From positions 4,776 to 68,775 of the forward strand of contig JBNAVN010000001.1 in the NCBI GenBank assembly GCA_049700315.1: a stretch of DNA of 64,000 nucleotides. The letters are read 5' to 3'. Within the stretch, counting starts at the first letter, position 1, and every line of letters begins with the position of its first letter. The notes under the pieces were generated by a model. The model saw only the letters and a list, made by a program, of their open reading frames with translations. It made no database searches and was not told where the DNA came from. Source of the DNA: a bacterium. Lineage in GTDB: Bacteria; Hydrothermota; Tepidihabitantia; SM23-42; JAOAFX01. The translations under genes and the position numbers were made by a program. This document shows, one piece after another, positions 2,425 to 59,524 of this stretch.

Positions 2425-3450
2425 TCAATCAAGGACTTCACTAATCATGCCTCCACCCAGGACTGTGTCATTCTCATAAAACACAACTGACTGTCCGGGC
2501 GTGATTGCCCATTGGGGTTTTTCAAAGCATACCCGTGCTCTGTTATCTTCTAAATACACTACTGCCGGACTCAGTGGCGCAACATACCTTGTCTTTGCCA
2601 AAACACTCATCGGATCGCTGAAATCACAGGGGAAAATAAAACTCAAGTCATTGGCAATCAGACTTTTCTTATATACATCCTGTTTTTTACCCACATAAAT
2701 TGCATTATCTAAAGGGTCAATCTTTATTACATAATATGGTTCTTCATCGCTGATACCAATTCCCTTACGTTGTCCCCAGGTAAAATGAAAAATCCCTTTG
2801 TGCATACCAATTTTCCTTCCATTCTTGCTAAAAATTGGACCCGGTTGTTCCTTAACAATATTTTTCAAATATGTAGTATAATCCATATCCGGCAGGAAGC
2901 AGACATCCTGACTTTTTTTCCTGTGGGCTGTAGGTAATTTTAATTCTTTTGCATATTTCCTTATTTCTTCCTTTGTATAATCACCAAGTACAAGTATTAT
3001 TTTTGACAACTGTCTCTGACTTAATCTGTATAAAAAATAGGATTGTTCATTCTTATCTTTACCCTTCTTCAACAGATAAATACCTTCTTTTTCTTCAATC
3101 TTTGCATAATGACCCGTGGCAATCATATCAAAACCCATTTCAAGTGCTTTTTCCAGAAATACACCAAACTTGATTATCTCGTTGCACAATACACAGGGAT
3201 TGGGCGTTCTTCCTGATTGATATTCCCTCACGAAATTCTCAATGATTGTGTTTTGATAATATTCGCTGAAATCAAATAGATGGAATTTAATATTCAAGAT
3301 CTCGCACGCGCTTTTTGCATACTCAATATCTTCCTTTTCTACACCCTTGAACAACATTGTAGCACCCGCAACTTCATAGCCCTGCCTCTTCAATATTGCA
3401 GCTGCTGTGGATGAATCAACACCACCGCTCAATGCCACAAGAATTTTCAT
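2425..3450 (-). CDS. mnmA: tRNA-specific 2-thiouridylase MnmA
   Basis: N-terminal PP-loop MKILVALSGGVDSS. Full-length (341 aa) similarity pattern to MnmA/TrmU, including conserved Cys residues (NPCVLCN). Confidence 0.9.
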   Translation of the reverse strand: MKILVALSGGVDSSTAAAILKRQGYEVAGATMLFKGVEKEDIEYAKSACEILNIKFHLFDFSEYYQNTIIENFVREYQSGRTPNPCVLCNEIIKFGVFLEKALEMGFDMIATGHYAKIEEKEGIYLLKKGKDKNEQSYFLYRLSQRQLSKIILVLGDYTKEEIRKYAKELKLPTAHRKKSQDVCFLPDMDYTTYLKNIVKEQPGPIFSKNGRKIGMHKGIFHFTWGQRKGIGISDEEPYYVIKIDPLDNAIYVGKKQDVYKKSLIANDLSFIFPCDFSDPMSVLAKTRYVAPLSPAVVYLEDNRARVCFEKPQWAITPGQSVVFYENDTVLGGGMISEVLD

Positions 3451-3570
3451 TGTGTTAAGATGAGTTTGCCTACATCATTTTTCTTCATCATCACCTTATC
3501 TTCACAATGAGTGATGGGCATTTTGACAGGAAATTATCATGTGTTTCTGACCGGTTATTGGGCAAATATA

Positions 3571-4746
3571 CTATCTTTTTGTGATTGGAGATATCGCCCT
3601 TAATTCTTTTACAATTTTCGGGAATTGTTCACACACATAGTCTATATCCTCTTCAGTAGTAAGTCTACCTGTGGTTATCCTGATTGAACCCCTTGCGTCC
3701 TCAATCGGCACACCAATTGCAGTCAGCACATGGGATGGCTCAAGTGAGCCTGATGAGCAGGCAGAACCTGTAGCAACCTCAATTCCTATCTGGTCAAGGC
3801 GCATAAGCAATGCCTCACCTTCTATATACTTTACAATGATATGACAATTGTTGGGTAATCTTTTTTCAGGATGACCATTCAAAACTATATCATCCACATT
3901 ATTCAACAATGATTTAGTCAATTTATCCCTCAGCCTTCTTGAATGTTCAACCCTTTCTGCCATATCTCTTATCGCAAGTTCGGCAGCATATGCCATACCC
4001 ACGATGCCAGGCACATTATGCGTTGATGCCCTCTTTCCCATTTCCTGCGCACCACCATGAAGAAGGGATTCAACCCTGGTGCCTCTTCTTATAAACAAAG
4101 CACCCACACCCTTTGGTCCATAGAATTTGTGAGCAGATATTGAGAGTAAATCAACACCAAGTTTATTGACATTTGTATCAATAGCACCAAATGACTGGAC
4201 TGCATCGGTATGCAAGTATACACCCCTTTCCCTGCAAATCTTTGATATCTCTTCAATCGGTTCAATCGTGCCTATTTCATTATTGGCATGCATTATTGAA
4301 ACCAAAATTGTTTTGTCTGAAATTACCTTTTTCACATCGTCCGGGTTAACCATTCCATATTTATCAACTGGCAAGAATGTGGTCTTGAAGCCCTGGGTTT
4401 GCAGAAAAATAAATGGTTCAAGGACTGCGTGATGTTCAGTCTTTGCGGTAATAATATGATTGCCTTTTTCTGCCATTGCATAGGCAACACCCTTTATTGC
4501 CATATTATCAGATTCACTACCACCAGAAGTAAAAACAATCTCATCAGAACTTGCTCCCAGCATATCAGCAATTTTTTTTCTCGCTTTTTCAATTGCATCC
4601 TTTGCCTCCAATCCGGAAGTATGGAGACTTGATGGATTAGCAAATTTCTCAAAAAAATATGGCTTCATTGCCTCAAGCACATCCGGATGCAGTGGTGTGG
4701 TTGCCGCATAATCAAGGTAGATTCTACGGTTCATTGTATTTTCCAT
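3571..4746 (-). CDS. iscS: Cysteine desulfurase (group I, IscS/NifS type)
   Basis: YLDYAATTP N-terminus, PLP-lysine region SISAHKFYGPKGVGALF, active-site loop ATGSACSSGSLEPSHVL. Adjacent to mnmA, consistent with a sulfur relay. Confidence 0.85.
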   Translation of the reverse strand: MENTMNRRIYLDYAATTPLHPDVLEAMKPYFFEKFANPSSLHTSGLEAKDAIEKARKKIADMLGASSDEIVFTSGGSESDNMAIKGVAYAMAEKGNHIITAKTEHHAVLEPFIFLQTQGFKTTFLPVDKYGMVNPDDVKKVISDKTILVSIMHANNEIGTIEPIEEISKICRERGVYLHTDAVQSFGAIDTNVNKLGVDLLSISAHKFYGPKGVGALFIRRGTRVESLLHGGAQEMGKRASTHNVPGIVGMAYAAELAIRDMAERVEHSRRLRDKLTKSLLNNVDDIVLNGHPEKRLPNNCHIIVKYIEGEALLMRLDQIGIEVATGSACSSGSLEPSHVLTAIGVPIEDARGSIRITTGRLTTEEDIDYVCEQFPKIVKELRAISPITKR

Positions 4747-16847: not shown

Positions 16848-17696
16848 ATGGAGATTGAAAATCTTGTTACCAGCCATACCGGTATTGGTGAACAACTGAT
16901 TTCCAGTCTTATTAAACGTGGAGAGACCATATATACTGTTTTCCCCTCACCCAAAGAAGTTCCGATGTCCTTCTTGGGCAAGATAAACTTGAAATATGGT
17001 TTTGTTAAATTTGACCAGGAACTCAATATTGAAAAAGGATTACCAAGAAAAGTAAAAAATATATTCCATATTTTTGAAAGTTATTCTGGTTCATTTACAA
17101 AAATCTTTATGACAAATGTGACAACAACCTTATTATTATTGGAATGGGCAAAAAAGATCGGTGCGAGCAAATTTGTTTTGTTATCTTCGGGTGAAGTGTA
17201 TGGCTACGGAGACAATGTCATTGAGAATGCACCATATAATCCCCGAAGTTTTTATGCTACAACCAAATTTCACGCAGAGACCCTTTGCCGCTATTATAAT
17301 AGAATTTTTGAGATTAAGATTCTAAGGGTATTTTTTCCGTATGGTAGAAACCTTCCACAGGGTTATATCCACAATCTTTTTGAAACAATCAAATCCAGTG
17401 GCATCATTGAAACTGATTATGCCTCAATCTGCCCTACATTTGTTGATGATATTACTGAACCAATGATTAATCTGCGTGATCTGCCGGGAAATGCAACCTA
17501 TAATATCTGTGGTCCCGCAATTCTTCTGACACAATTAATCAAAGATATTGAGTCCGTTACTGGCAAGACGCCAAAAAAGGTGAGCACAGGAAAGATCACA
17601 CTTTGCGGTAATTGCACAAAGGCAAAAGAAGAACTGGGTTACAGGGAAACACCCCTGAGAAACGGACTTCAGACCCTCATAGATCAAACAAAATGA
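16848..17696 (+). CDS. NAD-dependent epimerase/dehydratase family protein (divergent)
   Basis: 282 aa with an extended-SDR catalytic region (LLSSGEVYG). The stop overlaps the next start (ATGA). Confidence 0.6.
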   Translation: MEIENLVTSHTGIGEQLISSLIKRGETIYTVFPSPKEVPMSFLGKINLKYGFVKFDQELNIEKGLPRKVKNIFHIFESYSGSFTKIFMTNVTTTLLLLEWAKKIGASKFVLLSSGEVYGYGDNVIENAPYNPRSFYATTKFHAETLCRYYNRIFEIKILRVFFPYGRNLPQGYIHNLFETIKSSGIIETDYASICPTFVDDITEPMINLRDLPGNATYNICGPAILLTQLIKDIESVTGKTPKKVSTGKITLCGNCTKAKEELGYRETPLRNGLQTLIDQTK

Positions 17697-19105
17697 TTGA
17701 TATCCTCCTGGTAAATCCTGCAGAAAAAGGCGGCTTTTTTGAAAAGATGCCACCCCTGGGCTTGGCTTCACTTGCAAGTTTTCTTGAGGAAAACGGACTT
17801 TCCGTGAAGATTATTGACTTTGAGATAGAAAAAAAGCCATTGGAACACTGGCTTTCCTTTTACCAACCCAAATTCCTCGGTATTTCAGGTACAACCCATA
17901 CACGCTTTGAATCATTCAAGTTGGCACGCCAGGCAAAAACATTTAATAAAGAGATGGTGACAATATACGGAGGCATTAATGCTACATTTACCGCAAACGA
18001 AACATTGCGCAATATACCAGAAATAGATTTTGTAGTCAGAGGTGAGGGTGAAGAAGTGCTGCTTGAATTGTTAAAAACATTTAATACCGACCAGAAATTT
18101 GAAAAGATCCGAGGATTAAGTTTCAGAATGAATGATACAATTATTAATAACCCTCCAGGTAGCCGATTGCATCTTGATTCCCTACCACAACCTGCTTATC
18201 ACCTTCTGGAAATGAAGAAATATGAAATGAAGATGGAATTTGTTAAGAAAAAAGGAATTTCAGTTATCACCTCACGCGGCTGCCTGTATCGGTGTTCTTT
18301 TTGCTCAGCAAGCAGAATGTTTAATAACCTGTTGACTGTCCGTTCAGCAAAAAATATCGTTGATGAAATCGAAAAATTGTTAGAACAGTATCATTTTCAG
18401 GCGATAAAATTTTTTGACAGCGCCCTGACGCTTGACCGAGAGCACATTGAGACTTTGTGTGATGAAATTATTGCCCGCAATTTGCACTTTCCCTGGGAAT
18501 GTGAGGTCAGGGTCGGCACTGCAGATGAGCCATTGCTTGAAAAAATGCGCCGGGCGGGTTGTTATTATGTTGATATCGGAATTGAATCAGCAAGTCAAAA
18601 AGTTCTTGATCTGATGCGCAAGGGCATTACCGTTGAACAGTCTCAAAAATTGCTTGAAATCTGCCACCAGTTAGGATTCAAAGTGAAGGCATTTTTTTCA
18701 TTTGGCCATATCAGCGAGACAATGGCTGATGTTGAAAAAACATTTGAATTTATTGAGAAAAATCGGTCAATAATTACGACTGTAGCAAGTGGCGCAGGCA
18801 TTAGAATCTATCCTGGCACCTATCTTGAAGATTATGCAAGAAAGAACAACCTATTACCACCAGATTTTCAATGGTCAAACCCTTATGAAGAACCACGCAA
18901 TGAGTTAATAATGCAGGCAAAGGAAATTCCTGTTCTTATCCAGCCACAATTGGGTTATGATGAACTGGAGGCAATCGCACTGCGCATCTATTCAAATCGT
19001 TTTAGTGGTTGGGAAGGATTTAAAAGAGGTATCACAAAAATCACCAATCCGGAAAAAATCAAAAAACTCTCTCAACTTTTGAAACTAAGAATAAAACACG
19101 GTTGA
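17693..19105 (+). CDS. B12-binding-domain radical SAM protein
   Basis: Start MIDILLVNPAE at 17693 (ATGA overlap). B12-binding-like N-terminus (PPLGLASLASFLEENGL). CxxxCxxC in SRGCLYRCSFCSAS. The upstream extension in the ORF track is spurious. Confidence 0.85.
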   Translation: MIDILLVNPAEKGGFFEKMPPLGLASLASFLEENGLSVKIIDFEIEKKPLEHWLSFYQPKFLGISGTTHTRFESFKLARQAKTFNKEMVTIYGGINATFTANETLRNIPEIDFVVRGEGEEVLLELLKTFNTDQKFEKIRGLSFRMNDTIINNPPGSRLHLDSLPQPAYHLLEMKKYEMKMEFVKKKGISVITSRGCLYRCSFCSASRMFNNLLTVRSAKNIVDEIEKLLEQYHFQAIKFFDSALTLDREHIETLCDEIIARNLHFPWECEVRVGTADEPLLEKMRRAGCYYVDIGIESASQKVLDLMRKGITVEQSQKLLEICHQLGFKVKAFFSFGHISETMADVEKTFEFIEKNRSIITTVASGAGIRIYPGTYLEDYARKNNLLPPDFQWSNPYEEPRNELIMQAKEIPVLIQPQLGYDELEAIALRIYSNRFSGWEGFKRGITKITNPEKIKKLSQLLKLRIKHG

Positions 19106-24133: not shown

Positions 24134-24207
24134 TACCCCTGACCCGATTTGAACGGGTGGCCTGCGGTTTAGGAAACCGCTGCTCTATCCTGCTGAGCTA
24201 CAGGGGC
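24134..24207 (-). tRNA. tRNA-Arg (anticodon CCT)
   Basis: Minus strand reads GCCCCTGTAGCTCAGCAGGATAGAGCAGCGGTTTCCTAAACCGCAGGCCACCCGTTCAAATCGGGTCAGGGGTA. Anticodon stem GCGGT/ACCGC with loop UUCCUAA. T-loop GTTCAAATC. Confidence 0.85.
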
Positions 24208-24470: not shown

Positions 24471-25493
24471 TTATGGAAGAATTTTGAGTTTACCCGGATG
24501 TTCCCTAATTATTTTGCCAATCAATCTAACTGACCTCTGATATTTTTCCAAAAATAAATTTACTTTGTCTTCAGATAGAACAATTGCTAAACCACCTGAA
24601 GTCTCAGAACCAAATATCAAATTTCCAATTTCAGGGGTTATACCTTCTTTTTGGACTCGTTCTGAAAAAGACTTTGTATTCATTGCAATACCCGGTTCAA
24701 CAATGCCATTTCTTACAATTTCAATAGCCCCTGGATAGACTGGAATTTTGGATGCCCACAGTTCAATTCCCACATTGCTTGCTTCAGCCATTTCTATCAA
24801 ATGTCCGGCAAGCCCGTAACCAGTTATATCAGTTGCTGCATCAACTCCGATTTCCTGCATTATCCTGGATGCATTTCTATTCAGAGTAGTCATTCCCTCA
24901 AATACCGGTTTCAAATCTATTCCTTCTGCTTTGTCAAGAAGGGTAGCCTGAATAATTGTGCCGACTCCGATTGGTTTGGTGAGAATTATTACATCACCTA
25001 ATTTTGCATTCGCATTTGTAACTATCTTCTGGGGATGGATATAGCCGATGACCGAAAGTCCATACATTATCCCTTCAGAATTAAATGTATGGCCACCGCA
25101 AATAGTGACACCTGCCTCCTGTGCCTTTGCCTGTCCACCTTTCAATATTTCACCGAGTATCTTAGGATCTCCCGCCCCAGGGAAACCAACCACATTCAAT
25201 GCAAGTTTTGGCTCACCACCCATTGCATAGACATCAGATATACAGTTTGTTGCTGCAATCATTCCAAATAGATAAGGGTCATCAACAACCGGTGCGAGCA
25301 GGTCAACTGTATAAACAAGTGCTAAATTGTCATTTATCTGATATACACCTGCATCATCCGCAGTATTCAATCCCACAAGCAGATTAGAATCCGTAATCGC
25401 CGGCAGATTTGAAAGCGCCTGCGCTAACTGCGCCTTAGAAATCTTGCTTGCTCAACCCGCGCACTTGATAAAGGATAACAATCCTTTCGGCAT
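24471..25493 (-). CDS. selD: Selenide, water dikinase SelD (selenophosphate synthetase), a selenoprotein with in-frame TGA (Sec) at 25452-25454
   Basis: True N-terminus MPKGLLSFIKCAG-U-ASKISKAQLAQALSNLPAITDSNLLVGLNTADDAGVY, in frame with listed ORF 24471-25376. It matches the SelD GAG(C/U)G.KI...LLVG...DDAAVY region. The rest of the ORF is the AIR-synthase-like SelD body. ATG at 25493. Confidence 0.85.
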
Positions 25494-25595
25494 CAGAATC
25501 ACCCCCTTTTGTTCTATTGATTATATCTAAATACCGCACCAAGTCAATGACCTGGTTAGAAAGATAGTACAATCGTATAAAAAATCACTCGGTTT

Positions 25596-25636
25596 GTGCA
25601 AAACAAAAAGGGGCTGTAAAACAGCCCCTTTTTGAA
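25596..25636. terminator. Bidirectional rho-independent terminator
   Basis: AAAAAGGGGCTG-TAAAA-CAGCCCCTTTTT hairpin with A/T runs on both sides, just downstream of the minus-strand T9SS gene stop (25650). Confidence 0.7.
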
Positions 25637-25649
25637 GAAAATCCTGTAA

Positions 25650-27479
25650 TCATTCAAGCATTATTATTTTCTGGATAAGATTCTGGTCTCCCGCAGAAAA
25701 TTTTACAAAGTAGACACCAGCCGGTAGTTTGTAACCTTTATCATCTTCACCAAACCAAACAACCATTGATCGTTCATCCATTGCTGTTAACCGTGAAAAA
25801 TCCCTGACCAGCCTTCCTGTCGCATCGTAGATTCTTAATTTGATTTCTGATTTCTGAGAACTGAAGTCTGTTTTTGTGTTCTGCCATTTTATCATAACAT
25901 TTTCCTTAAATGGATTTGGTAAAACTGAAAATCCGGCAGATGATTTATCAGAAGCATATTCATCAATTCCAACAAGCACCGGCACTGCAATATCATCTAC
26001 ATACCATCCTTCTGCTACCACGCTCTGGTCACTGATAAATCTGAATCTCAGACGCACAGTCTGTCCAGAGTATGCAGAGAGCGGATAACTAACCTGGGTC
26101 CAGGTACTCTGGGTTCCATTATAAATCCCCAAAATTCGCCACCATCCACAATTGTTGTCAATTTCACAATATGAGTAATCATAGTTCAATTCTGTGGCAT
26201 ACTGATGATAGAATCGGAGCAAACTATCCGGGGTCACCACAAAATACGGCGAAACAAGCGAAGCATCATTCAAATTTGTATATTGCCAGGTATTCTCTAC
26301 GCCTGAATACCATGAATGGGTCGGTGAATTGCTTTTGTGAGTTGTGATATGCCAGTTATCATTTCCACCCGAATGTGTCCAGGAACCCTGCCCCGATTCA
26401 ATGTTATCAACAAACCCTGGTTGATTTGTCACAATGAAGTTTATTGTATTTGTATCACCAGGTGTGCCAAAGTTCAAATTGAATTGCACTGTGCGAGGAG
26501 TTGGACAGGATGCACTGATGGTAAAATTGACAACTAATACTGTATCAACCTCACCTGAGGCAATTGAGATGGTCTGCGGTGTTGCTGAGGTAATGGTTAT
26601 GTATGGGTCACTCTCAGAAATACTTGCTGTTCCCGTATATGTGCCATTGCCGTTATTCTTGCCCTGAATATAAGCCCTTATTGCCTCGCCAGGCTGGGCA
26701 ATGCGGTTACCATTTCCTGAAGTTTCTGTGAAGGTCAAACCATAATAATCCATATTTATTTTGCCAGTAACACCTACCTCAGCTGCCTGATAGATCTCTC
26801 TTGTTGAACCCTGAACAAACGCAACGATCTTACAGTTTTGCTCATTCCAACTGGCGTCAATTGTAAAATTTCTTGATTTGACAATATTCCCACTTGCGGG
26901 TATTGAAACCGCCTCACCGTTTGCATCAGGAAGCATATCCCGACAAACATGCTCAACTGTTGTCAATCCATACCAGGAATAAGGAATGTTGTTTTCAACC
27001 ACTGCAAATTGAAGAGTTCCGGAAACGGTTCCAGTTGAAGTATTAGTTATTGATGCTGTGACTGTACCACTATTTGAGACCGTATCATATGTGCAGGTCA
27101 TATCAATGGTGAGCGGGCTTGAAACTGCAAGTCTCTGGGTAATCCAGCGTCTATATATCGGATACATTGTGCCAGGCATACTCACGCCGCCAACCTCCTG
27201 ATTATTACCGTCAACCTGAATTATTGGCGTTCCACTGATACCATAATATGTCCACCTGGCAACACCATCAGGACAGGAAAATGGATAACCACTGGCATGA
27301 TAAGCAATGACTACCACTGAATCATAAGAACGATTATAGTTCTCAGCAAGACCTCTTGCTGCACCAGGACAATAAGGTCAGCCTGAAACCCTGGTGAATT
27401 CTTCAAAGACCACAACCCGCTGGCTGGCAAAAACAAAAACACCTGTGGCGAGTAGCCCTAACAGCATAAGTTTTTTCAT
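25650..27479 (-). CDS. T9SS C-terminal-sorting-domain protein with N-terminal signal peptide and thioredoxin-like U-x-x-C motif (selenoprotein; in-frame TGA at 27378-27380)
   Basis: Upstream of listed ORF 25650-27317 the frame continues to the ATG at 27479: MKKLMLLGLLATGVFVFASQRVVVFEEFTRVSG-U-PYCPGAARGLAENYNRSYDS-VVVIAYHASGY. The C-terminus is a T9SS CTD (GVYFVKFSAGDQNLIQKIIMLE). Confidence 0.7.
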
Positions 27480-31053: not shown

Positions 31054-31497
31054 ATGAATCGCAGTAAAAAAATAGCCAGTTTTAGAGATCTAGAAATCTA
31101 TCAAGAATCATACAATGCGGCAATTATGGTCATAAAAAGAATAATCCCTAAGTTGCCGCTGGAGGAAAAATACGACTTAGGCAGTCAATTAAGACGATCG
31201 GTTAAAGCAATTCCCAGGCTTATTGCAGAGGGATATTCCAAAAGACACCAGACCAAAGGTTTTCAGAAATATTTAGATGATGCACTTGCTGAAAGCAATG
31301 AGACAATTGTCTCACTCAGTCAAGTTCGTGATATATATGGTGTTGAAACTGATTTTTGTAATAAACTCATAAATGAATATGAAATTATTTCGCGTCAGAT
31401 TTATCGTTTGACATTGATATGGGAATCCTTTGGCAAAAGAAAAAGACCAACATCTCAACCTAAACCCAATGACCATAACATAGAGGAGGTAAAGTGA
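31054..31497 (+). CDS. Four-helix-bundle protein (family often found in 23S rRNA intervening sequences)
   Basis: SFRDLEIYQESY...IVSLSQ pattern typical of the TIGR02436-like four-helix-bundle family. ATGA overlap with the next gene. Confidence 0.65.
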   Translation: MNRSKKIASFRDLEIYQESYNAAIMVIKRIIPKLPLEEKYDLGSQLRRSVKAIPRLIAEGYSKRHQTKGFQKYLDDALAESNETIVSLSQVRDIYGVETDFCNKLINEYEIISRQIYRLTLIWESFGKRKRPTSQPKPNDHNIEEVK

Positions 31498-32579
31498 CCT
31501 TTTTTCTCTTGATATTCACAACCACCATCTCCCCACCCGGGGTGGTGCGGGCTTATGATGCGCCTGATGATGGCGGTGGTGCTGTAATAATAGAATGGCA
31601 GTTGTCACCAGATGATGCCATTATTGACGGTTATGAAATCTACCGGAGCGAAAATGGAATAGATTTTGAAAAGGTAGGATTTATCGGCAGGAGTAGAAAT
31701 TCCATTGATGACCAGACCGAAGATGGAACGAAATATTACTACAGAGTTGCTTCCCTGAAAGATACCGTAAGAGTATTTTCAGATATATCTTCACCGGTTA
31801 TGAGTTCTGCCCAGTGGATTGACCGCAATAAAATCAATATCCTCGTTGCATTGATGATTTTTGGTGGCATCATATTATATTATGTTTATCACGCAAAAAA
31901 AGGCAAAGAATTATACATTCGTAGAATCGCTGGACTTCAAGCAGTGGATGATGCAGTGGGCAGGGCAACAGAAATGGGCAAACCACTATTGTATATTCCG
32001 GGAATAGGCTATATAGAATATATTGCCACGATTGCATCAATGAACATCCTGGGAGAAGTAGCAAAGAAAGTTGCTCAGTATGATACCAAGTTCATAAATC
32101 CTCATGCTGACCCAATCGTTTATACTGTAGCACGGGAAATCATAAAAGAGGCATATACCAAAGTGGGGAGGCCAGACGCCTTCAATCCTGATTGCGTCTA
32201 TTTTATTACTGATTCCCAATTTGCCTTTGCCGCTGCCTGTGATGGTATAATGGTCCGTGAGCAACCAGCCGCGAATTTTTTGATTGGCTGGTTCCGTGCT
32301 GAATCTCTCATTCTTGCCGAAACCGGTGCTTCAACTGGGGCAATCCAAATTGCGGGAACCGACCAGTTGTCACAATTGCCTTTCTTTGTCACTGCCTGCG
32401 ATTATACATTGATTGGAGAAGAGTTATATGCAGCATCCGCATATATTTCAAAAGAACCATTGCTTTTAGGAGCCATCAAGGGGGAAGACCTTATTAAACT
32501 CATCATTGGTATTGTACTGATTTGCGCCTCGGTCATCGGTCTTAGCACGAAATTCCCAATCTTGAATTTGTTTAGATAG
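31494..32579 (+). CDS. Module copy 1, protein A: signal peptide + FN3-like domain + TM + conserved ~230 aa cytoplasmic domain + C-terminal TM (unknown family)
   Basis: Paralogous to 36400-37156 of ORF 35033-37156 and to 59521-60600(-). Shared motifs RRIAGLxAxDxAVGRATEMGKP, DPIVYTVAREI, AESLIxAExGASTGAIQIAGTD, QLPFFVTACDYTLIGEELYAASAY. Confidence 0.8.
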   Translation: MTFFLLIFTTTISPPGVVRAYDAPDDGGGAVIIEWQLSPDDAIIDGYEIYRSENGIDFEKVGFIGRSRNSIDDQTEDGTKYYYRVASLKDTVRVFSDISSPVMSSAQWIDRNKINILVALMIFGGIILYYVYHAKKGKELYIRRIAGLQAVDDAVGRATEMGKPLLYIPGIGYIEYIATIASMNILGEVAKKVAQYDTKFINPHADPIVYTVAREIIKEAYTKVGRPDAFNPDCVYFITDSQFAFAAACDGIMVREQPAANFLIGWFRAESLILAETGASTGAIQIAGTDQLSQLPFFVTACDYTLIGEELYAASAYISKEPLLLGAIKGEDLIKLIIGIVLICASVIGLSTKFPILNLFR

Positions 32580-32588
32580 GAGGATGAT

Positions 32589-33248
32589 ATGAAAAGAACA
32601 CTCCCTCTGATTTTAGTCTTCATCTTTGGAATTTGTGGTATTATTCCATTTTTAATACCACATCCTTATGTCCAGGGAACCGATGAGTTGTTACGTAATG
32701 ATTTATTAAGAATCCTCGCTGCATTCGCGCTGGTCTTAGGATTAGGGAGTCTACTGAGTGTCCACTTTGAAAAAATTCGTCGGCATAGACAAAACTGGCA
32801 ATATTCCTATGTTTTACTCATTGTCTTTTTTGTCACTTCAATCATCGGTCTTTTCGGTGGAGTTGCCGGTACCGGACCATTGCCGACAAAAATCGGTGCA
32901 TTCCCTTTTGACATCCAAACAATTTATATGAATATTGAAGTTCCGCTTGGTTCTACAATGTTTGCGCTATTGGCATTTTTGATGGCATCTGCTGCATACC
33001 GTGCTTTCCGTGCCCGCTCAACCGAAGCAAGTCTACTTCTTGTCGCAGCATTTATCGTAATGATTGGTATCCTCCCCCTTGGGAATAAAATTTCACCACA
33101 TCTTCCTTCATTCGCCCAATGGATTATGGATGTCCCAAATGTTGCGGGTAAAAGAGGTATTGGCTTTGGCATCGCCCTTGGCTCATTGGCAACAGCACTG
33201 AAAATCATTCTTGGAATAGAAAGGTCATGGCTTGGAGGTGGTGAATGA
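32589..33248 (+). CDS. Module copy 1, protein B: polytopic inner-membrane protein (unknown family)
   Basis: Paralogous to 37264-37941 and 58901-59524(-). Shared motifs [11 protein letters not shown], [18 protein letters not shown], LGIERSWLGG. Confidence 0.8.
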   Translation: MKRTLPLILVFIFGICGIIPFLIPHPYVQGTDELLRNDLLRILAAFALVLGLGSLLSVHFEKIRRHRQNWQYSYVLLIVFFVTSIIGLFGGVAGTGPLPTKIGAFPFDIQTIYMNIEVPLGSTMFALLAFLMASAAYRAFRARSTEASLLLVAAFIVMIGILPLGNKISPHLPSFAQWIMDVPNVAGKRGIGFGIALGSLATALKIILGIERSWLGGGE

Positions 33249-34108
33249 AGATTGTTGATCTAATGCTAAAGATTGACCGAAGAATCATCTATCTTGCCCT
33301 TGCTATTGTAGTAATTGTTCCATTGATTATAAAGTCCCCTCAGCATGTCCGAGTGATGACACCAGTTGAAAAACTTTTCAATGCGGTTGACACAATTCAT
33401 CAGGATAAAGCAATGATTCTTGACTGCGATTATGACCCTCAAACACAACCAGAATTGGAGCCTATGGCAATTGCTGTTCTCAGACACGCCTTCAAGAAAA
33501 GAATCAAGGTGCTGGTCTTGAGTTTATATGTGCAACCATTGGGGCTGGCAAAAGCCGCCTTAGACCAAACCGTGCAAGAACATAACCGCGAAGCAAAAAC
33601 GAATGAAGATAGTCTAATCTATGGAAGAGATTATGTCTTTTTAGGATGGCAGCCACCACCAATTGTTCCAATGCTCGGTATGGGTGAGAGTATTACCAAG
33701 GTTTACAAAAAAGATTATTACGGTCATCAGACAGATTCTCTGCCCCTGATGAAGACGATAAAGAACTACAATAATATTGAACTACTCGTATCACTGAGTG
33801 GTGCTGATACACCTCTTCTCTGGGTTGCCTATGCTCAAAACAGATTTGGAGTTCCGGTTGGTGCTGGGTGTACGGCTGTTTCAGCATCTGATTTCTATCC
33901 CTATCTTCAGACCGGTCAATTTTCTGGTCTATTGATCGGAATGAAGGGCGGTGCTGAATATGAAGAAATCGTAGAAGGAAAACTCGGAATACAGAGAAGA
34001 AGAAAGGCGAGCGAATCGCTTCTTTCACTTACTTATGCCCATTTGATAATGATATTATTTATTATTATTGGTAACATAGGTTATTTCATCAAGAGGAGGC
34101 AGAAATGA
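33245..34108 (+). CDS. Module copy 1, protein C: bitopic protein with N- and C-terminal TM helices and a ~230 aa periplasmic domain (unknown family)
   Basis: Paralogous to 37991-38866 and 58048-58869(-). Shared motifs LKIDRRIxxLxxAL, DYDPQTxPELxPMxIAxLRHAF, IYGRDYVFLG. Overlaps B by 4 nt. Confidence 0.8.
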   Translation: MKIVDLMLKIDRRIIYLALAIVVIVPLIIKSPQHVRVMTPVEKLFNAVDTIHQDKAMILDCDYDPQTQPELEPMAIAVLRHAFKKRIKVLVLSLYVQPLGLAKAALDQTVQEHNREAKTNEDSLIYGRDYVFLGWQPPPIVPMLGMGESITKVYKKDYYGHQTDSLPLMKTIKNYNNIELLVSLSGADTPLLWVAYAQNRFGVPVGAGCTAVSASDFYPYLQTGQFSGLLIGMKGGAEYEEIVEGKLGIQRRRKASESLLSLTYAHLIMILFIIIGNIGYFIKRRQK

Positions 34109-34746
34109 GTTTCAGTCATGACCCCTGGATCTGGATTAGTTCACTTTTGAGCCTTGCAATATTCTCTTTTCTTTACAAAGATAACCCATTCTACAAATTT
34201 GCTGAACATGTCTTTGTTGGCGCAGCAAATGGCTATGCAGTAACATTCTACTGGCACAATATCCTGGTTCCCTCACTCTTTGACCCGTTATTCAGACAAG
34301 GAAAATTACTTTATATAATAATCTTTGTTGTTGGTATACTATACTTCACAAGATTTATTCCTAAGATTTCCTGGCTTGTTAGAATACCAATTGCCATTCA
34401 AATTGGTTATTATACAGGTGCTGCTATTCCCGCAACCATACAAGCGGATATCATAAAGCAAATTCAGGGAACAATTCTTACAAAAGAGAACTTCCTCGCC
34501 TGGCATGCGGGAAACACGGGCATAGTCTGGTCAGTGATTCTGCTTGTTGGTGTCCTGTGCACTCTTTCCTACTTCTATTTTTCCCGAGAACACAAAGGAG
34601 TACTAAAAGTCACTTCACGCATTGGTATTGTTTTTATTATGATCGGTTTTGGTGCGGCATTCGGTTATACAGTAATGGCTAGGGTGAGCCTTTTGATTGG
34701 TCGGTTACAATTTCTACTGGGCCCCTGGCTGGGAATAATTAAATAA
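34105..34746 (+). CDS. Module copy 1, protein D: polytopic membrane protein (unknown family)
   Basis: Paralogous to 38998-39618 and 57434-58051(-). Shared motifs DPWIWIxxxL, FLYKxNPFY, SWLVRIPIA, ADIIKQIQGT, SREHKG, VMARxSLLIGRLQFLxGxWLGII. Overlaps C by 4 nt. Confidence 0.8.
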   Translation: MSFSHDPWIWISSLLSLAIFSFLYKDNPFYKFAEHVFVGAANGYAVTFYWHNILVPSLFDPLFRQGKLLYIIIFVVGILYFTRFIPKISWLVRIPIAIQIGYYTGAAIPATIQADIIKQIQGTILTKENFLAWHAGNTGIVWSVILLVGVLCTLSYFYFSREHKGVLKVTSRIGIVFIMIGFGAAFGYTVMARVSLLIGRLQFLLGPWLGIIK

Positions 34747-35032: not shown

Positions 35033-37156
35033 GTGTTTATGATGAACTCCATATTTTTTATCTTTGTTTTCTCGGTCCTGAATCCGCCCGAAAATGTTCG
35101 GGCATTGAAGGTAATCAATCAGGATAGCATCAGCATCACCATCACCTGGGATGTAAAAGAAGAAAAGGATTTTGATGGTTTTGAAATCTATCGCTCAAAA
35201 TATAAACTCTTAAAAACTGTATTTCAGGATACCATCTTTATTGATAATGATATCAAGACTGATAACGAATATCTCTATGATATAGTAAAAAAAGAAAGAA
35301 TGAAGGAATACAACCATCAAAAGAATTTTCTAAAGGTCGTCTCAATCGGTTATTTAGTTATAAAAGATACAATTAATAAAAGGAATATCATAAAATGGAG
35401 AAGACCAAATGACCTCTACCTCGGCGAAACTTATGAGATATGGCGCACAGAAAAGAATGGCGATTATGAACTCCTCGGTAGTGTGGATAAGAACCAAAAA
35501 AGTTTCCGTGATACGACAATGAAGGATGGGGTAAAATACTTCTATAAGGTTGCAGGGATAAAAGGGAATGAAAAAATATTCTCAGAGCCATCTTCTCCAC
35601 TCTTTACCATTGGCACTCCAAAATTTATCCATACTTGTGATATTCCCAATGACGAAGGAGAAGGTTTCAGAATAACCTGGGAACCGTCTCCAAATTATGA
35701 TATGATAAAGAGTTATGCATTGCTGCGCCTTGTCTATGATTCTATCGCTGCATTCAAAGATACCTTTTCTTATACTGATACAACTATAAAAAAAGATATT
35801 GAATACCATTACTACATTGGGAAAAACTATCAGATCACAATGCCGGCAAAGATTGTAGCAGATTCAATAGGAATGACAGGTAGGGTAATAAAAATAGAAT
35901 GGAAACTAAATCCGAAAGTTATTGGTCAGAATTATGACCTTACCCTTGTCTATCGTGCTGAAAGAGATAGTGCTGATAGATTCAAATATGTTGATTATAC
36001 TGCACCGGATGAAACAAAGTTTTTGGATGGAACTGCAGAACCAGATAAAGAATATATCTATGAAGCAAGGGCGGTTAAGGAAATCTCAATCCCATTCAAG
36101 ATTGAAAAGGATACAATCATCAATGGCAAAAGAAGTATTTCACTTTTCTGGAAAGGTTCAAAAGAACCACCTGAATTCTTGGGATATTATGTAATGCGGG
36201 CAGAAAAGGATAGTGGAAATTATGGTGTTTATGCACGTCTGGGAACTCAGATAGATAAATATCAGGACCGGGTTGGTATATATAACGGAATTCCTTATGC
36301 TTACCAGATTGTAGCAATAACAAAAGATGGAGAAAGAATATCATCAAAGACAACACCTTATGTGGTTGCTTCTCCCCAGTGGTTTCATACCGGTAGAATA
36401 AATGCCCTGATTGGCATTGTGATATTCATCTTTCTCGTCATATTCTTTATGGAATATACAAAAAAGGCAAAAAAGGATATCTTTGTGCGGCGCATTGCAG
36501 GTTTGTCAGCAATTGATGAGGCAGTGGGCAGGGCAACAGAAATGGGAAGACCAATTCTCTATGTTCCCGGGACATCGGTCATTGACGATGTCGCAACAAT
36601 TGCATCTTTGAATATTCTTGCTGAAGTCGCAAAAAAGACTGCGCAGTATAATACGCCATTAATCGTCCCCAACCGTGACCCGATTGTCTATACAGTCGCT
36701 CGCGAGGTTGTTAAAGAATCCTATAACAAAGTAGGCAGACCTGATGCATTTAATCCTGATAGTGTATATTTCGTCACTGATTCCCAGTTTGCCTATGCAG
36801 CAGCAGTAAGCGGCATTATGATCAGAGAAAAACCCGCAACAAATTTTCTGGTTGGAATGTTCTGGGCAGAATCTTTGATTATGGCAGAAAGCGGTGCATC
36901 TACTGGTGCAATACAGATTGCAGGAACAGATGCAGTTACACAACTGCCATTCTTTATCACGGCCTGCGATTATACACTCATTGGTGAAGAACTATATGCA
37001 GCAAGTGCATACATCTCAAGGAACCCAACGCTTTTAGCCGCGCTGAAGAGTCAGGATTATTGCAAATTAGTAATTGCCGGGGTGATGGCAATAGCAACAT
37101 TCCTTGCCCTTTTAAAAATCGGCATCCCGGTATTTAATTTATTCAATATTCAATGA
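35033..37156 (+). CDS. Module copy 2, protein A (expanded: signal peptide + ~5 FN3-like repeats + TM + conserved cytoplasmic domain + C-terminal TM)
   Basis: 707 aa. The C-terminal 250 aa align motif-for-motif with copy-1 A. The N-terminus holds repeated units with W...Y(E/R)I(Y/W)R...KY(F/Y)YKVAGI patterns. Confidence 0.8.
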   Translation: MFMMNSIFFIFVFSVLNPPENVRALKVINQDSISITITWDVKEEKDFDGFEIYRSKYKLLKTVFQDTIFIDNDIKTDNEYLYDIVKKERMKEYNHQKNFLKVVSIGYLVIKDTINKRNIIKWRRPNDLYLGETYEIWRTEKNGDYELLGSVDKNQKSFRDTTMKDGVKYFYKVAGIKGNEKIFSEPSSPLFTIGTPKFIHTCDIPNDEGEGFRITWEPSPNYDMIKSYALLRLVYDSIAAFKDTFSYTDTTIKKDIEYHYYIGKNYQITMPAKIVADSIGMTGRVIKIEWKLNPKVIGQNYDLTLVYRAERDSADRFKYVDYTAPDETKFLDGTAEPDKEYIYEARAVKEISIPFKIEKDTIINGKRSISLFWKGSKEPPEFLGYYVMRAEKDSGNYGVYARLGTQIDKYQDRVGIYNGIPYAYQIVAITKDGERISSKTTPYVVASPQWFHTGRINALIGIVIFIFLVIFFMEYTKKAKKDIFVRRIAGLSAIDEAVGRATEMGRPILYVPGTSVIDDVATIASLNILAEVAKKTAQYNTPLIVPNRDPIVYTVAREVVKESYNKVGRPDAFNPDSVYFVTDSQFAYAAAVSGIMIREKPATNFLVGMFWAESLIMAESGASTGAIQIAGTDAVTQLPFFITACDYTLIGEELYAASAYISRNPTLLAALKSQDYCKLVIAGVMAIATFLALLKIGIPVFNLFNIQ

Positions 37157-37263
37157 AAAAAGTTGGTTAAATGGTTAAAAGGTTAGATATAAAAAAGAAT
37201 GGTATCTTGTTGTTGTTCCAATTATTTAACCAATTACCATTTAACCAAAAATAAGGAGGTCTT

Positions 37264-37941
37264 ATGCAAAGAACAATTCCTTTAATAATTGTTTTGATAA
37301 TCGGCATTGCAATGCTTGTCCAATTCTTTGTTCCCCACAAGATATCCAAGGATATCTATATGTACTTCCTTGACTGGCTTGGAATCATTGCAGCATTCGC
37401 ACTGGTCCTTGGATTGGGCAGTTTGATAAACCATCACCTGGACAAGATTCAAAGGAAAAGAGAACACTGGCCCTATTCTTATGTTACATTGATTGCCATT
37501 TTGGTTACGGCAATAATCGGGCTTTTTGGCGGAATGGAAGGTAAGGGACCTTTACCAGTTCAACCACAATTTATGCTTGGCAATAAACTTATTGTGATTA
37601 AATATTCAATCCAGACAATCTATGAAAATATCATGACCCCGCTTGGTGGAACAATGTTTGCACTTCTGGCATTTTTTATGGCTTCAGCAGCGTATCGTGC
37701 ATTCCGTGCCCGCACATTTGAAGCCACACTCTTACTTGTTGCTGCATTCATCGTAATGATTGGTGTGGTACCACTTGGTTATTACATTTCACCAAAACTT
37801 CCTCATCTTGCTCAGTGGATAATGGATGTACCAAATACCGCTTCCAAAAGGGGAATCCTGTTTGGCGTTGGTCTGGGAATTGCCTCAACTTCTCTAAAGA
37901 TTATGCTCGGTATTGAAAGGAACTGGCTGGGAGGAAAATGA
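37264..37941 (+). CDS. Module copy 2, protein B
   Basis: 225 aa. Same motifs as copy-1 B. Confidence 0.8.
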
Positions 37942-37990
37942 TGGTCAAATCGTCTGATAGTTGGATGGTTAAAATAGGAAGGAGTAGAAT

Positions 37991-38866
37991 ATGAATCTGT
38001 GGGAGTATCTGTTAAAAATTGATAGAAGAATTGTTTTCTTGCTTGTTGGACTTTCGGTATTGATACCGTTAATATTCCCATTTGCAATAAAGACAAATGT
38101 AATGCCGCCAACCCAGACATTATTTAATACCATTGAAGAAATTGACCCTGAGGCAAAAGGCATTCTGATTGCTGCGGATTATGACCCTCAGACAATGCCT
38201 GAACTACAGCCAATGTTGATTGCCCTTTTGCGACATGCTTTTGCAAGAAGAATTCCTGTTCTTGTGATGACTTCTTATATTCAGGGTCCTGGGCTTGCAA
38301 AACAGGGACTTGACCAGGTGACCCAGGAATTCAATAGCCAGGCAATGATAAACGCAGATTCAATAATATACGGAAGGGATTATGTCTTTTTGGGTTTTCC
38401 ACCATTGTGGCTCGCTGCGGTTCTGAGAATGGGTTCTGATATCAGTCAGGCATTTCCTGCAGATTACTATAAAAACAGAACCGGATCTCTTGAAATGATG
38501 AAAAGAATAAAAAACTATAATGATATTGGGATTATTGTCTCCATTGCAGGTAGTGCCATTCCTCAATCCTGGGTAACCTATGCAAATACAAGATTTGGTG
38601 TAAAGGTCGGCTCAGGTGCAACTGCGGTCACTGCCCCTGATTTCTATCCATTCCTACAGACCGGACAGATGAGCGGAATGATTGCCGGATTGAAAGGCGC
38701 TTCTGAATATGAGTATCTTGTCAATACAAAATATAATCTTACCGGTCCAACCCCAGCGACAAGGGGGATGAGTTCCCAGTCTATTGCCCATCTTATGATT
38801 TTGCTTCTGGTCATCATCGGTAACATCGGACATTTTGCCACCCGCAAGAAGAAAACAAATGGTTAA
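37991..38866 (+). CDS. Module copy 2, protein C
   Basis: 291 aa. Same motifs and topology as copy-1 C. Confidence 0.8.
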   Translation: MNLWEYLLKIDRRIVFLLVGLSVLIPLIFPFAIKTNVMPPTQTLFNTIEEIDPEAKGILIAADYDPQTMPELQPMLIALLRHAFARRIPVLVMTSYIQGPGLAKQGLDQVTQEFNSQAMINADSIIYGRDYVFLGFPPLWLAAVLRMGSDISQAFPADYYKNRTGSLEMMKRIKNYNDIGIIVSIAGSAIPQSWVTYANTRFGVKVGSGATAVTAPDFYPFLQTGQMSGMIAGLKGASEYEYLVNTKYNLTGPTPATRGMSSQSIAHLMILLLVIIGNIGHFATRKKKTNG

Positions 38867-38909
38867 ATGGTTAAATAAATTGAGTGAAATGGAAAAGGGT
38901 TGAATAAAA

Positions 38910-39008
38910 ATGGAAAAGAACAGTAAAGAAAAGAAAAAGTTTAAGACTTTTGAGGATTTAGAAATTTATAAAAAGGCAAGAGAGTTTAGGAGGTTTTATG
39001 AGCAATGA
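38910..39008 (+). pseudogene. Truncated N-terminal remnant (32 codons) of a four-helix-bundle protein gene
   Basis: MEKNSKEKKKFKTFEDLEIYKKAREFRRFYEQ* shares the (F)xDLEIY motif with the intact four-helix-bundle gene at 31054. It ends overlapping the copy-2 D start. Its AGGAGG serves as the D2 ribosome-binding site. Confidence 0.45.
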
Positions 39009-39618
39009 TCCCTGGATCTGGATTGGTGCATTCTTGACCATCGGAATTCTCTCTTTTCTGTATAAAGAGAATCCATTTTATAGATTTTGTGAGCATTTAT
39101 TTGTGGGTGTAGCAAATGGTTATGCCATTGCCGTAACCTGGCATCTGATATTGACACCAAGGCTCATTATGCCTTTGCAGGGCGGAAATTATCTTGTGCT
39201 CATTCCGATGATCATTGGTTTACTCTATTTTTGTAGGTTTATTCCCAAGGTATCCTGGCTTGTGCGGATTCCTATTGCGGTTGCCTTGGGATTCTCTTCA
39301 GGTGTGAGCATCCCTGCCATATTGCAGGCAGATATCATTAAGCAAATTCAAGGAACAGTTGTTTATCCCCATTTGTTTAACAACTGGCAGCAGGGATTAT
39401 GGGCAGTGCTAATATTCGTCGGTGTCATTGCCACGATATTCTTCTTCTTCTTTTCCAAAGAACATAAAGGAATTCTCAAACCGGTCTCCTATATTGGTAT
39501 TATCTTCATTATGGTTGGTTTTGGTGCATCTTTTGGTTATACAGTTATGGCACGATTATCACTACTTATCGGCAGATTACAATTTTTATTTGGCACCTGG
39601 CTGGGAATAATAAGATAA
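38998..39618 (+). CDS. Module copy 2, protein D
   Basis: 206 aa. Same motifs as copy-1 D. Confidence 0.8.
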   Translation: MSNDPWIWIGAFLTIGILSFLYKENPFYRFCEHLFVGVANGYAIAVTWHLILTPRLIMPLQGGNYLVLIPMIIGLLYFCRFIPKVSWLVRIPIAVALGFSSGVSIPAILQADIIKQIQGTVVYPHLFNNWQQGLWAVLIFVGVIATIFFFFFSKEHKGILKPVSYIGIIFIMVGFGASFGYTVMARLSLLIGRLQFLFGTWLGIIR

Positions 39619-57433: not shown

Positions 57434-58051
57434 TTATATCACTCCTAACCAGTTATGCAAAAGAAAATAGACTCTACCGATAAACAACGATACACGAGCC
57501 ATAATTGTATAACCGAAAGATGCGCCAAACGATACCATCATAAACCAGATACCGATTTTTGCCCCAGTGCCCAGGGGACCTTTGTGTTCTTTGGAAAAAT
57601 AGAAATAAAGGAGTGTAAAGATTACACCAAGAATAATCAAAATATTGGAAAATGTAGTAAACACAGAGATATTTTTCAAAGGTAGAAAGGTTGCCTGTAA
57701 TTGCGGGAAAATATCACCTTGAACAATCTGAGTTATGGATACGGCCATCGCTATGCCCATGGTAAATGTGAGGGGAATGCGAATCATCCAGGAGATTTTG
57801 GGGATGAGCGGAGCAAACATCAAAAAACCTATAAAAATGGGAAAGATATTGTACCATTGTCCCTTCTGAAACAAGGGTTCAAAGAGGTTGGGCCAGGCAA
57901 AATCATACCAGAGCACGACTGCCCAATATCCTGCCGAAACACCAACAAAAATATTTTCAGCAATCTTATAAAAAGGATTATCCTTGTACAAAAATGAGTA
58001 TATTGCCAGGGTCAGCAATGCAGCAATCCATATACCTATTATATTTATCAT
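57434..58051 (-). CDS. Module copy 3, protein D
   Basis: 205 aa. FLYKDNPFY, SWMIRIPL, SKEHKG, VMARVSLFIGR. Abuts the DUF4388 gene with no gap. Confidence 0.8.
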   Translation of the reverse strand: MINIIGIWIAALLTLAIYSFLYKDNPFYKIAENIFVGVSAGYWAVVLWYDFAWPNLFEPLFQKGQWYNIFPIFIGFLMFAPLIPKISWMIRIPLTFTMGIAMAVSITQIVQGDIFPQLQATFLPLKNISVFTTFSNILIILGVIFTLLYFYFSKEHKGPLGTGAKIGIWFMMVSFGASFGYTIMARVSLFIGRVYFLLHNWLGVI

Positions 58052-58869
58052 TTTTTTCTCCGCTGGTAAACCAATATCACATTGCCAAGCACAATAAATC
58101 CAACAAGGAGTAGATGAACAATAGATTGGGCATCCATTCCCCTCAAACCTCTGCCCTTTCTGTCAACAAGTGTTTCATATTCTGCGGCACCTTTTAATCC
58201 GCCCAAAAGCCCAACCAACTGTCCTGAACTCAGATAGGCATATTGTTGTGGTGCCATAATCGCAGTAGTTGCACCACAAATCGGCACACCGTAACGGGCG
58301 TGGAAATAAATTATCCAGTGGAGAATACCAGGATCACCCGCAGAAAAGGTCATGACGGCCTTGATGTCCTTTGCTGATTTTACTGCCCTGCCCAAAGCAA
58401 ATGAGTCTATCAGAATACCTTGATAATCAACTTTTATCACATCTGAAAAACTGCGCCCCAAACTCAAAAGCATTACTGCACCACCAGGCCGATAACCAAC
58501 ATTGATATAGTCTTCACCATATCTTTTGTTATAAATGCGGGCAAGACTGCTCAGGGCAATATTTCCAAGTTCACTACCAGCAGGCCATAAGCCCATCATA
58601 TATATTTTCAAATCTCTGCGAAAACAATGTTCAATTACTGCTTCAGTTGCCGGATAAAGTTCTGCCTCACTGCCCGGGTCATAATCAGTAGAAATAAGTA
58701 TTATAGAACCGCGGGGCAATGATTCAATTTTATCATAGACATTTTTAACCGGTTTCGTAATATCAACCGGTAGATTCAATGGCACAATCATCGGAATGAT
58801 AACTGCCAGTGCAACGAGAAGAAAAATAATTCTACGATCAAGACGGGCAAGAGATTCAATGATATTCAT
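58048..58869 (-). CDS. Module copy 3, protein C
   Basis: 273 aa. LARLDRRIIFLLVALAV, DYDPGSEAELYPATEAVIEHCF. TM at both ends. Confidence 0.8.
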   Translation of the reverse strand: MNIIESLARLDRRIIFLLVALAVIIPMIVPLNLPVDITKPVKNVYDKIESLPRGSIILISTDYDPGSEAELYPATEAVIEHCFRRDLKIYMMGLWPAGSELGNIALSSLARIYNKRYGEDYINVGYRPGGAVMLLSLGRSFSDVIKVDYQGILIDSFALGRAVKSAKDIKAVMTFSAGDPGILHWIIYFHARYGVPICGATTAIMAPQQYAYLSSGQLVGLLGGLKGAAEYETLVDRKGRGLRGMDAQSIVHLLLVGFIVLGNVILVYQRRKK

Positions 58870-58900
58870 AATTTAGTGCTTCCGCAAAACGATAGACTTT

Positions 58901-59524
58901 TTATTCATGCCCTCCTCCCATATAACTTCTCTCAATCCCTAAAAGAACGCGCAATGCCATGGATATTAATCCTAAGTCAATGCCAAACAAGATACCCCGC
59001 TTTGCTGCGGTATTGGGAACCTGCATTATCCACTCAACAAGGTCAGGAAATTTGTGCCAGATCAAATAGCCAATAGGAATTCTCCCAATCATCACAATTA
59101 CCGCGGCGGTCAGAAGCAGTGTTGCCTCAGGTGTCTTTGCCCTGAATGCCCTGAATGATGCTGACGCAACAAAAAAGGCAAGCAAAGAAAACATTGTTGC
59201 ACCAAGTGGAACCTGAAAATTTTCAAAGAGGTACAAAAATATCCTTGAATCCCTGCCACCAATGAATCCAGCACCAAGCATAATACCAAGAAAGAAAAGT
59301 AGAATTATGCTGTATTGCCAGTCCCGTAATTTGCGTTGAATTTTATCAATGTTTATTCTTATTAGATTGAATATCCCAATAAAGACAAAAAACGCAGCAA
59401 CACCCTGATACCACAACTGAAGCAATTGAGAACTATCCTGGGCAAATTTCGCAGGGATAAAAAAGGTTATCAGCATATAAAATCCACAACCGAAAACGAT
59501 TATCAAAGGTATAATTATCTTCAT
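58901..59524 (-). CDS. Module copy 3, protein B
   Basis: 207 aa. ASASFRAFRAK, EWIMQVPNTAAKRGILFG, LGIERSYMGG. Confidence 0.8.
   Translation of the reverse strand: MKIIIPLIIVFGCGFYMLITFFIPAKFAQDSSQLLQLWYQGVAAFFVFIGIFNLIRINIDKIQRKLRDWQYSIILLFFLGIMLGAGFIGGRDSRIFLYLFENFQVPLGATMFSLLAFFVASASFRAFRAKTPEATLLLTAAVIVMIGRIPIGYLIWHKFPDLVEWIMQVPNTAAKRGILFGIDLGLISMALRVLLGIERSYMGGGHE

Follow-up and report, generated by a model that had tools for sequence, protein, structure and literature searches.

The 64,000-nucleotide stretch of contig JBNAVN010000001.1 analysed here (the window) carries on its minus strand a selD gene, predicted to encode the selenophosphate synthetase of a candidate division WOR-3 bacterium, and this enzyme is very probably itself a selenoprotein: the UGA at its codon 14 appears to be recoded as the catalytic selenocysteine (Sec, U). 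Several kinds of evidence point this way, among them the retention of the same TGA throughout the clade, synonymous codon variation upstream of it, cysteine at the equivalent position in homologs, and start signals placed ahead of the full-length frame. The gene and the signals at its 5' end are as follows.

24471..25493, minus strand: selD coding sequence, 340 codons including Sec14, and a TAA stop (translation; profile, Pfam and PDB matches)
25452..25454, minus strand: in-frame TGA, Sec codon 14 in K-C-A-G-U-A-S-K, aligned with E. coli Cys17 and kept in 16 clade loci
25440..25442, minus strand: ATT codon 18, used as the start in MGB9719880.1 (protein P0001, 100% identical, 323 residues, beginning MSKAQ)
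25499..25508, minus strand: Shine-Dalgarno sequence AAGGGGGTGA, read from the sequence, ending 5 nt before ATG 25493
25520..25547, minus strand: sigma-70-type promoter TTGACT-16-TATAAT, 5' of selD, with 11 of 12 consensus positions matched

The frame opens at ATG 25493..25491, with in-frame stops 10 and 12 codons further 5', and closes at TAA 24473..24471, the only in-frame TGA being codon 14 (25454..25452); its product begins M-P-K-G-L-L-S-F-I-K-C-A-G-U-A-S-K-I-S. With U written as C, the full-length protein scores 335.5 bits (cutoff 125) against the TIGR00476 selD hidden Markov model (HMM), in an alignment that begins at residue 6, 5' of the TGA, and it contains both AIR-synthase-related domains, the N-terminal AIRS (PF00586, 87.5 bits) and the C-terminal AIRS_C (PF02769, 54.3 bits). 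Two narrower SelD models fell below their cutoffs (NF002098, 279 versus 299 bits; NF010705, 150 versus 291 bits). The best matches among solved structures are the SelD proteins of Aquifex aeolicus (2yye, E = 2.4e-55) and E. coli (3u0o, E = 1.7e-54), and the DD, TVD, N..D and D.TG motifs are kept in both alignments. Close relatives of the protein carry the label candidate division WOR-3. On these matches, 24471..25493 is the selenophosphate synthetase gene of a WOR-3 bacterium, with a predicted role in making selenophosphate from selenide and ATP.

Codon 14 falls on Cys17 of E. coli SelD and on the cysteine at the Sec site of the Aquifex protein, a residue of the crystal form that we take to be an engineered substitute for the natural Sec13; three residues on, the catalytic lysine, Lys17, aligns with E. 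coli Lys20 and its 2yye equivalent. E. coli SelD requires both residues, Cys17 and Lys20. The TGA recurs at the same codon in all 16 related WOR-3-clade loci, which were fetched from genome and metagenome collections and represent independent assemblies of different samples (SelD identity 63–87%, with amino acids conserved on both sides of the codon), and again in three distant SelD genes of other lineages (L085, L086 and L088; 39–45% identity). The same column holds cysteine in 74 Bacteroidota SelD loci and in one paralog within the clade (L161:10001, protein P0058). Across 12 lineages the amino acids of codons 2–13 are retained while their synonymous codons vary (for example CCG/CCT, GGA/GGG/GGC, TTA/CTT/CTG and TGC/TGT). 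At the same time, 23 of 52 long open reading frames (ORFs) in the window end in TGA, the commonest stop codon there, which indicates that the genetic code is not reassigned. Judged by these comparisons of sequence, selection acts on selD at the protein level both before and after the UGA, the recoding signal taken in its entirety lies far beyond chance, and codon 14 almost certainly encodes selenocysteine.

The start signals accompany the full-length frame. TTGAC and TATAAT boxes stand at the equivalent place in the upstream regions of the relatives' selD genes, and the Shine-Dalgarno sequence is kept as AAGGGGGTGA or AAGGAGGTGA in most of them (AGGAG in L005, AGGGAG in L084); no such sequence was read 5' of either ATT 25442 or GTG 25376. 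Annotation nonetheless begins late. The window's ORF list opens selD only at GTG 25376 (301 residues), and the closest public protein, P0001 (MGB9719880.1, "MAG: selenide, water dikinase SelD [bacterium]"), lacks the catalytic residue. Further public SelD records from relatives (P0002, P0018, P0021, P0026, P0052 and P0065) either begin no earlier than ATT codon 18 or have W in place of Sec, the W presumably coming from gene calling with code 4.

Much of this had been anticipated by an earlier note made from the DNA letters alone. Its identification of selD is borne out by the HMM score and by both AIRS domains, and its coordinates for the gene and the TGA are exact in the minus-strand reading. 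Its remark that the ORF track misses the N-terminus can be widened to the public record, which also begins late, at codon 18, and its placing of the TGA at the SelD active-site Cys/Sec position agrees with the alignments to E. coli Cys17 and the Aquifex cysteine and with the alternation of Sec and Cys among homologs. Of the motif it wrote, GAG-U-ASKIS, the U-ASKIS part is right and GAG is not; the sequence reads CAG-U-ASKIS.

The clade's SelD proteins have a further cysteine three residues before Sec (Cys11-Ala-Gly-Sec14, a C-x-x-U motif at 25452–25463, minus strand) in all 16 loci; the E. coli Cys19 position is Ser in the clade, and the Sec-type SelDs of L085, L086 and L088 have no Cys at −3. 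It is conceivable, though improbable, that this clade-specific Cys11-x-x-Sec14 pair forms a selenenylsulfide that alters selenium binding or delivery. One contig, L161, carries two selD paralogs (L161:4768–5790 and L161:10001–11023), one with TGA and the other with TGC at the catalytic codon; their products, P0058 and P0059, are near-identical over the last ~80 residues and differ in the remainder, a pattern that suggests gene conversion or an assembly chimera.

A candidate SECIS hairpin after the selD UGA

Two overlapping RNA structures follow the UGA, either of which might serve as a selenocysteine insertion sequence (SECIS) element.

25421..25433, minus strand: conserved core of the candidate SECIS, GCGC-AGUUA-GCGC, an RNAalifold consensus whose loop starts 22 nt after the UGA
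25405..25444, minus strand: extended stem-loop predicted for the window sequence only, comprising a 7-bp helix and a lower stem AGAUUU/AAAUCU, with a minimum free energy (MFE) of −18.7 kcal/mol

The smaller of the two is the conserved one. The inner hairpin, GCGC-AGUUR-GCGC in consensus form, keeps its pairs in 9 to 13 of 13 sequences, has an energy of −6.4 kcal/mol and is part of the MFE fold in six homologs. Codons 15–26 show the lowest synonymous variation in selD (mean codon entropy 0.74, against 1.25 elsewhere), no window of equal size being as low, and the hairpin's two Ala codons are GCG in 11 of 11 and 11 of 12 sequences, although GCG makes up 12% of the Ala codons in the window. The published model of bacterial SECIS elements specifies a loop of 3–9 nt with G in the first two loop positions followed by U, a spacing of 16–37 nt and an energy criterion of −7.5 kcal/mol (PMC13188914). 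The selD hairpin resembles it in lying inside the coding sequence 3' of the UGA, in its 5-nt loop with G second and then U, in its 22-nt spacing and in its 4-bp upper stem. A candidate SECIS of this kind after the selD UGA is likely to be real.

The longer helix fares differently. The earlier note had proposed as the SECIS a 7-bp stem about 15 nt after the UGA, and such a stem can indeed be drawn: after a 15-nt spacer, AAGGCGC (25436..25430) pairs across an 11-nt loop (25429..25419) with GCGCUUU (25418..25412), giving seven pairs, one of them G-U, all within the MFE fold. What does not hold is its conservation. The pair C23–G39 is kept in 3 of 13 distinct homologs, compensatory changes are absent, and 499 of 500 shuffles gave a covariation score at least as high; the helix energy of −7.6 kcal/mol is favourable only in the window and in L001-type sequences, and the 11-nt loop lies outside the model's 3–9 nt range. 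The 7-bp helix was accordingly rejected as a conserved element and is probably not the conserved SECIS helix.

Selenocysteine decoding and competing explanations

In the sequence of events that we propose, the promoter (25547..25520) and the Shine-Dalgarno sequence would drive expression of selD from ATG 25493, and SelB carrying Sec-tRNA(Sec) would recognise the small hairpin inside the coding sequence, through the core GCGC-AGUUR-GCGC, whose loop begins 22 nt past the UGA; in this sequence the longer stem may take the place of the core or be an extension of it. Recoding would then yield a 340-residue enzyme producing selenophosphate from selenide and ATP. Synthesis of SelD would depend on selenium supply, because the enzyme would need its own product in order to be made.

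Components of the decoding apparatus occur near selD in relatives. In L162, whose SelD is 64% identical, selA and selB lie 5–7 kb downstream of selD; in L166 (70% identical) selA is on the same 15-kb contig as selD, as presumably is selB; and SelB is annotated in many WOR-3 metagenome-assembled genomes (MAGs). Together with two UGA-containing genes in the window, selD and the upstream neighbour described below, this machinery supports the view that the uncultured source lineage uses selenocysteine.

The surroundings of selD in relatives have features of their own. Among the more distant ones, the gene set after selD is a conserved cluster comprising FeThRed_B, HGD-D and BcrAD_BadFG activator genes, genes for a methyltransferase and a B12-binding protein, and URO-D-like genes (L162:11380–19238, L164:11992–20920, L166:2920–11962 and L167:11397–20945), a cluster that is absent from the window; selA follows this cluster in L162 and L166, and selB adjoins selA in L162. 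In the closest relative (87% identical) a seryl-tRNA synthetase gene is divergently adjacent to selD (L165:8494–9762, with the same arrangement in L001). Seryl-tRNA synthetase charges tRNA-Sec with serine.

Several results weigh against recoding at codon 14, or against the hairpin as its signal. The 64-kb window contains no selA or selB, as judged by tblastn with a relative's SelA and SelB and by family scans of all long ORFs, and no tRNA-Sec was detected in it by ARAGORN or by Rfam, which at gathering thresholds gave two tRNAs only; ARAGORN likewise found no tRNA-Sec in 17 related loci. The sequence after the UGA folds no better than its shuffles (z = −1.06 over 60 nt, with 29 of 200 shuffles folding at least as well, and z = +0.21 over 81 nt), and the −6.4 kcal/mol of the minimal hairpin is weaker than the −7.5 kcal/mol of the bacterial model. 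No pair of the core shows convincing covariation across the 13 homologs, the core being almost invariant. The Cys paralog of L161 retains identical hairpin nucleotides, and conservation of the hairpin may therefore owe something to the A-Q-L-A-Q peptide that it encodes or to recent gene conversion, the latter made plausible by the near-identical C-termini of the L161 paralogs. Finally, no Rfam SECIS family matched, either across the whole window at gathering thresholds or in permissive scans around both UGAs, a null that is uninformative because Rfam covers bacterial SECIS elements poorly.

The alternatives must account for the same codon. If the TGA were a true stop, SelD would be translated from ATT 25442 or GTG 25376 as a truncated protein without its N-terminal loop, as MGB9719880.1 and many relatives are in fact annotated, and TGA does serve as an ordinary stop in this genome. 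A start so far downstream would, however, leave unexplained why 12 lineages keep the protein sequence of the 13 codons 5' of the TGA through synonymous changes, why the selD HMM already aligns from residue 6, and why promoter and Shine-Dalgarno sequence precede ATG 25493, with none of the latter before either later codon; the product would lack the Cys17 equivalent and, if begun at GTG 25376, the lysine equivalent to Lys20 as well. We regard a downstream start as very unlikely. Readthrough of the UGA by other means, whether through a reassigned code (Trp or Gly) or through near-cognate insertion of Trp or Cys, would fit the gene calls P0026, P0052 and P0065, which show W at this position, but TGA terminates 23 of the 52 long ORFs, including the gene next door, and the position belongs to the catalytic Cys/Sec residue of SelD, for which neither Trp nor Gly could substitute. 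Relatives moreover encode SelA and SelB near selD, and a conserved RNA element follows the UGA; readthrough of this sort has, in our judgement, very little chance of being correct.

There is also the prospect of a pseudogene, or of a Cys codon corrupted in sequencing or assembly, given a metagenome-assembled source and the single base change that separates TGC or TGT from TGA. The same TGA nevertheless recurs in 16 assemblies made independently from different samples, and the other 326 codons are intact and score as a full-length SelD, so that this explanation is effectively excluded. Taken together, the clade-wide TGA, the synonymous variation upstream, the Cys counterparts, the start signals and the use of TGA as a normal stop exclude error, pseudogene and reassigned code and argue strongly against a downstream start, leaving recoding of codon 14 as selenocysteine as by far the most probable interpretation.

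An Omp28-like neighbour and other features of the window

The gene directly upstream of selD also contains an in-frame TGA.

25650..27479, minus strand: gene for a secreted Omp28-like protein with a type IX secretion system (T9SS) C-terminal sorting domain (NF045500, NF033782 and Por_Secre_tail matches)
27378..27380, minus strand: in-frame TGA, codon 34, in S-G-U-P-Y-C, aligned with the first Cys of W-C-x-Y-C in Cys homologs
27344..27361, minus strand: candidate SECIS hairpin CAGCAAG-AGGU-CUUGCUG, 16 nt after the UGA, in the MFE fold (z = −1.79)

Running from ATG 27479 to the stop at 25652..25650, it would encode a signal peptide, the segment ...FEEFTRVSG-U-PYC-PGAARGL..., an Omp28-like domain and the T9SS sorting domain. 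The TGA is kept in three orthologs (L003, L004 and L006) and is replaced by Cys in L161:6513 (W-C-T-Y-C) and in several database homologs with CxxC, a thioredoxin-type motif. The hairpin is nucleotide-identical in the three Sec orthologs and of other sequence in the Cys ortholog, and its apical loop begins 23 nt past the UGA, nearly the same distance as in selD (22 nt). The protein falls below the NCBIfam cutoffs for both the Omp28-related selenoprotein family NF045500 (67.9 versus 200 bits) and Omp28 (NF033782, 66.8 versus 150 bits); on its scores and alignments it is an Omp28-family relative with a Sec/Cys pair of its own and not an NF045500 member at the NCBI threshold. As with selD, annotation misses the N-terminus: the ORF track opens the gene at GTG 27317, and the public calls of its Sec-form relatives (P0244–P0246) lack that end. 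The expectation, voiced when the DNA was first read, that further TGA-interrupted genes would be met has thus been realised within the window itself, by a gene with a conserved TGA in a U-x-x-C motif.

In the window, and likewise in L003, L004, L006, L164 and L161 (at both selD copies), selD has an Omp28-family gene directly upstream of it, altogether at six or seven of ~16 clade loci; upstream of selD in L163 there are only fragmented T9SS/MAM-domain gene calls. One could imagine that SelD and the Omp28-like U-x-x-C protein form a functional pair, in which a selenol/thiol oxidoreductase at the cell surface would capture or reduce selenium from the environment and pass it toward SelD, an idea that we consider improbable. 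A literature search on Omp28 selenoproteins found nothing relevant.

Between the Omp28-like gene and the selD promoter is a hairpin, GGGGCUG-UUUUA-CAGCCCC, followed by UUUUUGUUUU (25600–25628, minus strand); it resembles an intrinsic terminator but is missing from the output of the consensus scan. If it works as one, selD would be transcribed from its own promoter. Just downstream of selD is a tRNA-Arg(CCU) gene (24134–24207, minus strand), an arrangement shared with L003, L006 and L163.

A search of the window for other recoded genes yielded no convincing candidate. A B12-binding radical SAM ORF (17612..19105, plus strand) weakly matches the CUAEP-tail (seleno)protein model and ends in TGA, after which four more codons run to 19117, but its tail reads KHG*ETSV* and is not a Sec tail; other ORFs that are briefly open before a TGA seem to owe this to chance 5' extension. 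Elsewhere, a gene for MnmA (tRNA 2-thiouridine synthase) adjoins one for a NifS-type cysteine desulfurase (TIGR03402, 549.7 bits; 2425–4746, minus strand), which matches the selenocysteine lyase model SclA weakly (115.6 bits, cutoff 525) and could be a sulfur or selenium donor. The window also holds three paralogous four-gene cassettes (31494–34746 and 35033–39618, plus strand; 57434–60600, minus strand), each consisting of a gene for a DUF6754 protein and then three small ORFs of ~205–225, 273–291 and 206–213 residues that match no family; the cassette is found in L163 as well.

Significance and comparison with known SelD systems

The main value of these results is a correction of annotation: the public SelD proteins of the window and of many WOR-3 relatives lack the catalytic residue, and the Sec-form relatives of the neighbouring selenoprotein gene are likewise misannotated at the N-terminus. 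Sec use in the lineage implies that other "truncated" or "split" genes in such genomes merit re-examination, for which the two native UGA contexts offer the basis of a lineage-specific SECIS model. The understanding of SelD or of Sec decoding is unchanged; the more interesting leads are the recurrent Omp28-like selenoprotein beside selD and the clade-specific C-x-x-U motif. Our literature search found no paper describing Sec use in WOR-3, a trait that, given the many public WOR-3 SelB annotations, comes as no surprise.

Set beside the A. aeolicus enzyme (2yye, 2zod, 2zau), the WOR-3 protein shares the fold, the ATP-site motifs and the G-[U/C]-A-[AS]-K signature, with its Sec14 on the Cys of the crystal form; the similarity is moderate, however, the WOR-3 protein has the extra Cys three residues before Sec (C-A-G-U), and the SECIS sequences of the two genes are unrelated. 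Cys-type E. coli SelD (3u0o) matches it with U14 on Cys17, Lys17 on Lys20 and the same Asp/Asn motifs, but uses Cys without recoding or a SECIS, and its Cys19 corresponds to Ser16 in the window protein. Only one prokaryotic selenoprotein family is more widespread than SelD (PMC13188914, PMC1794560), and about 19% of prokaryotic SelD genes carry Sec, always at this N-terminal-loop position (PMC4561486). The predicted Sec of the window protein occupies that same position, as in the catalogued bacterial examples, and L085, L086 and L088 provide instances from other lineages; the window gene differs from the catalogued ones in that its public record is truncated. SelD is often misannotated, according to a 2026 database paper (PMC13326102). 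A Sec-containing SelD is textbook selenobiology, and by that measure the window gene is an ordinary member of its family.

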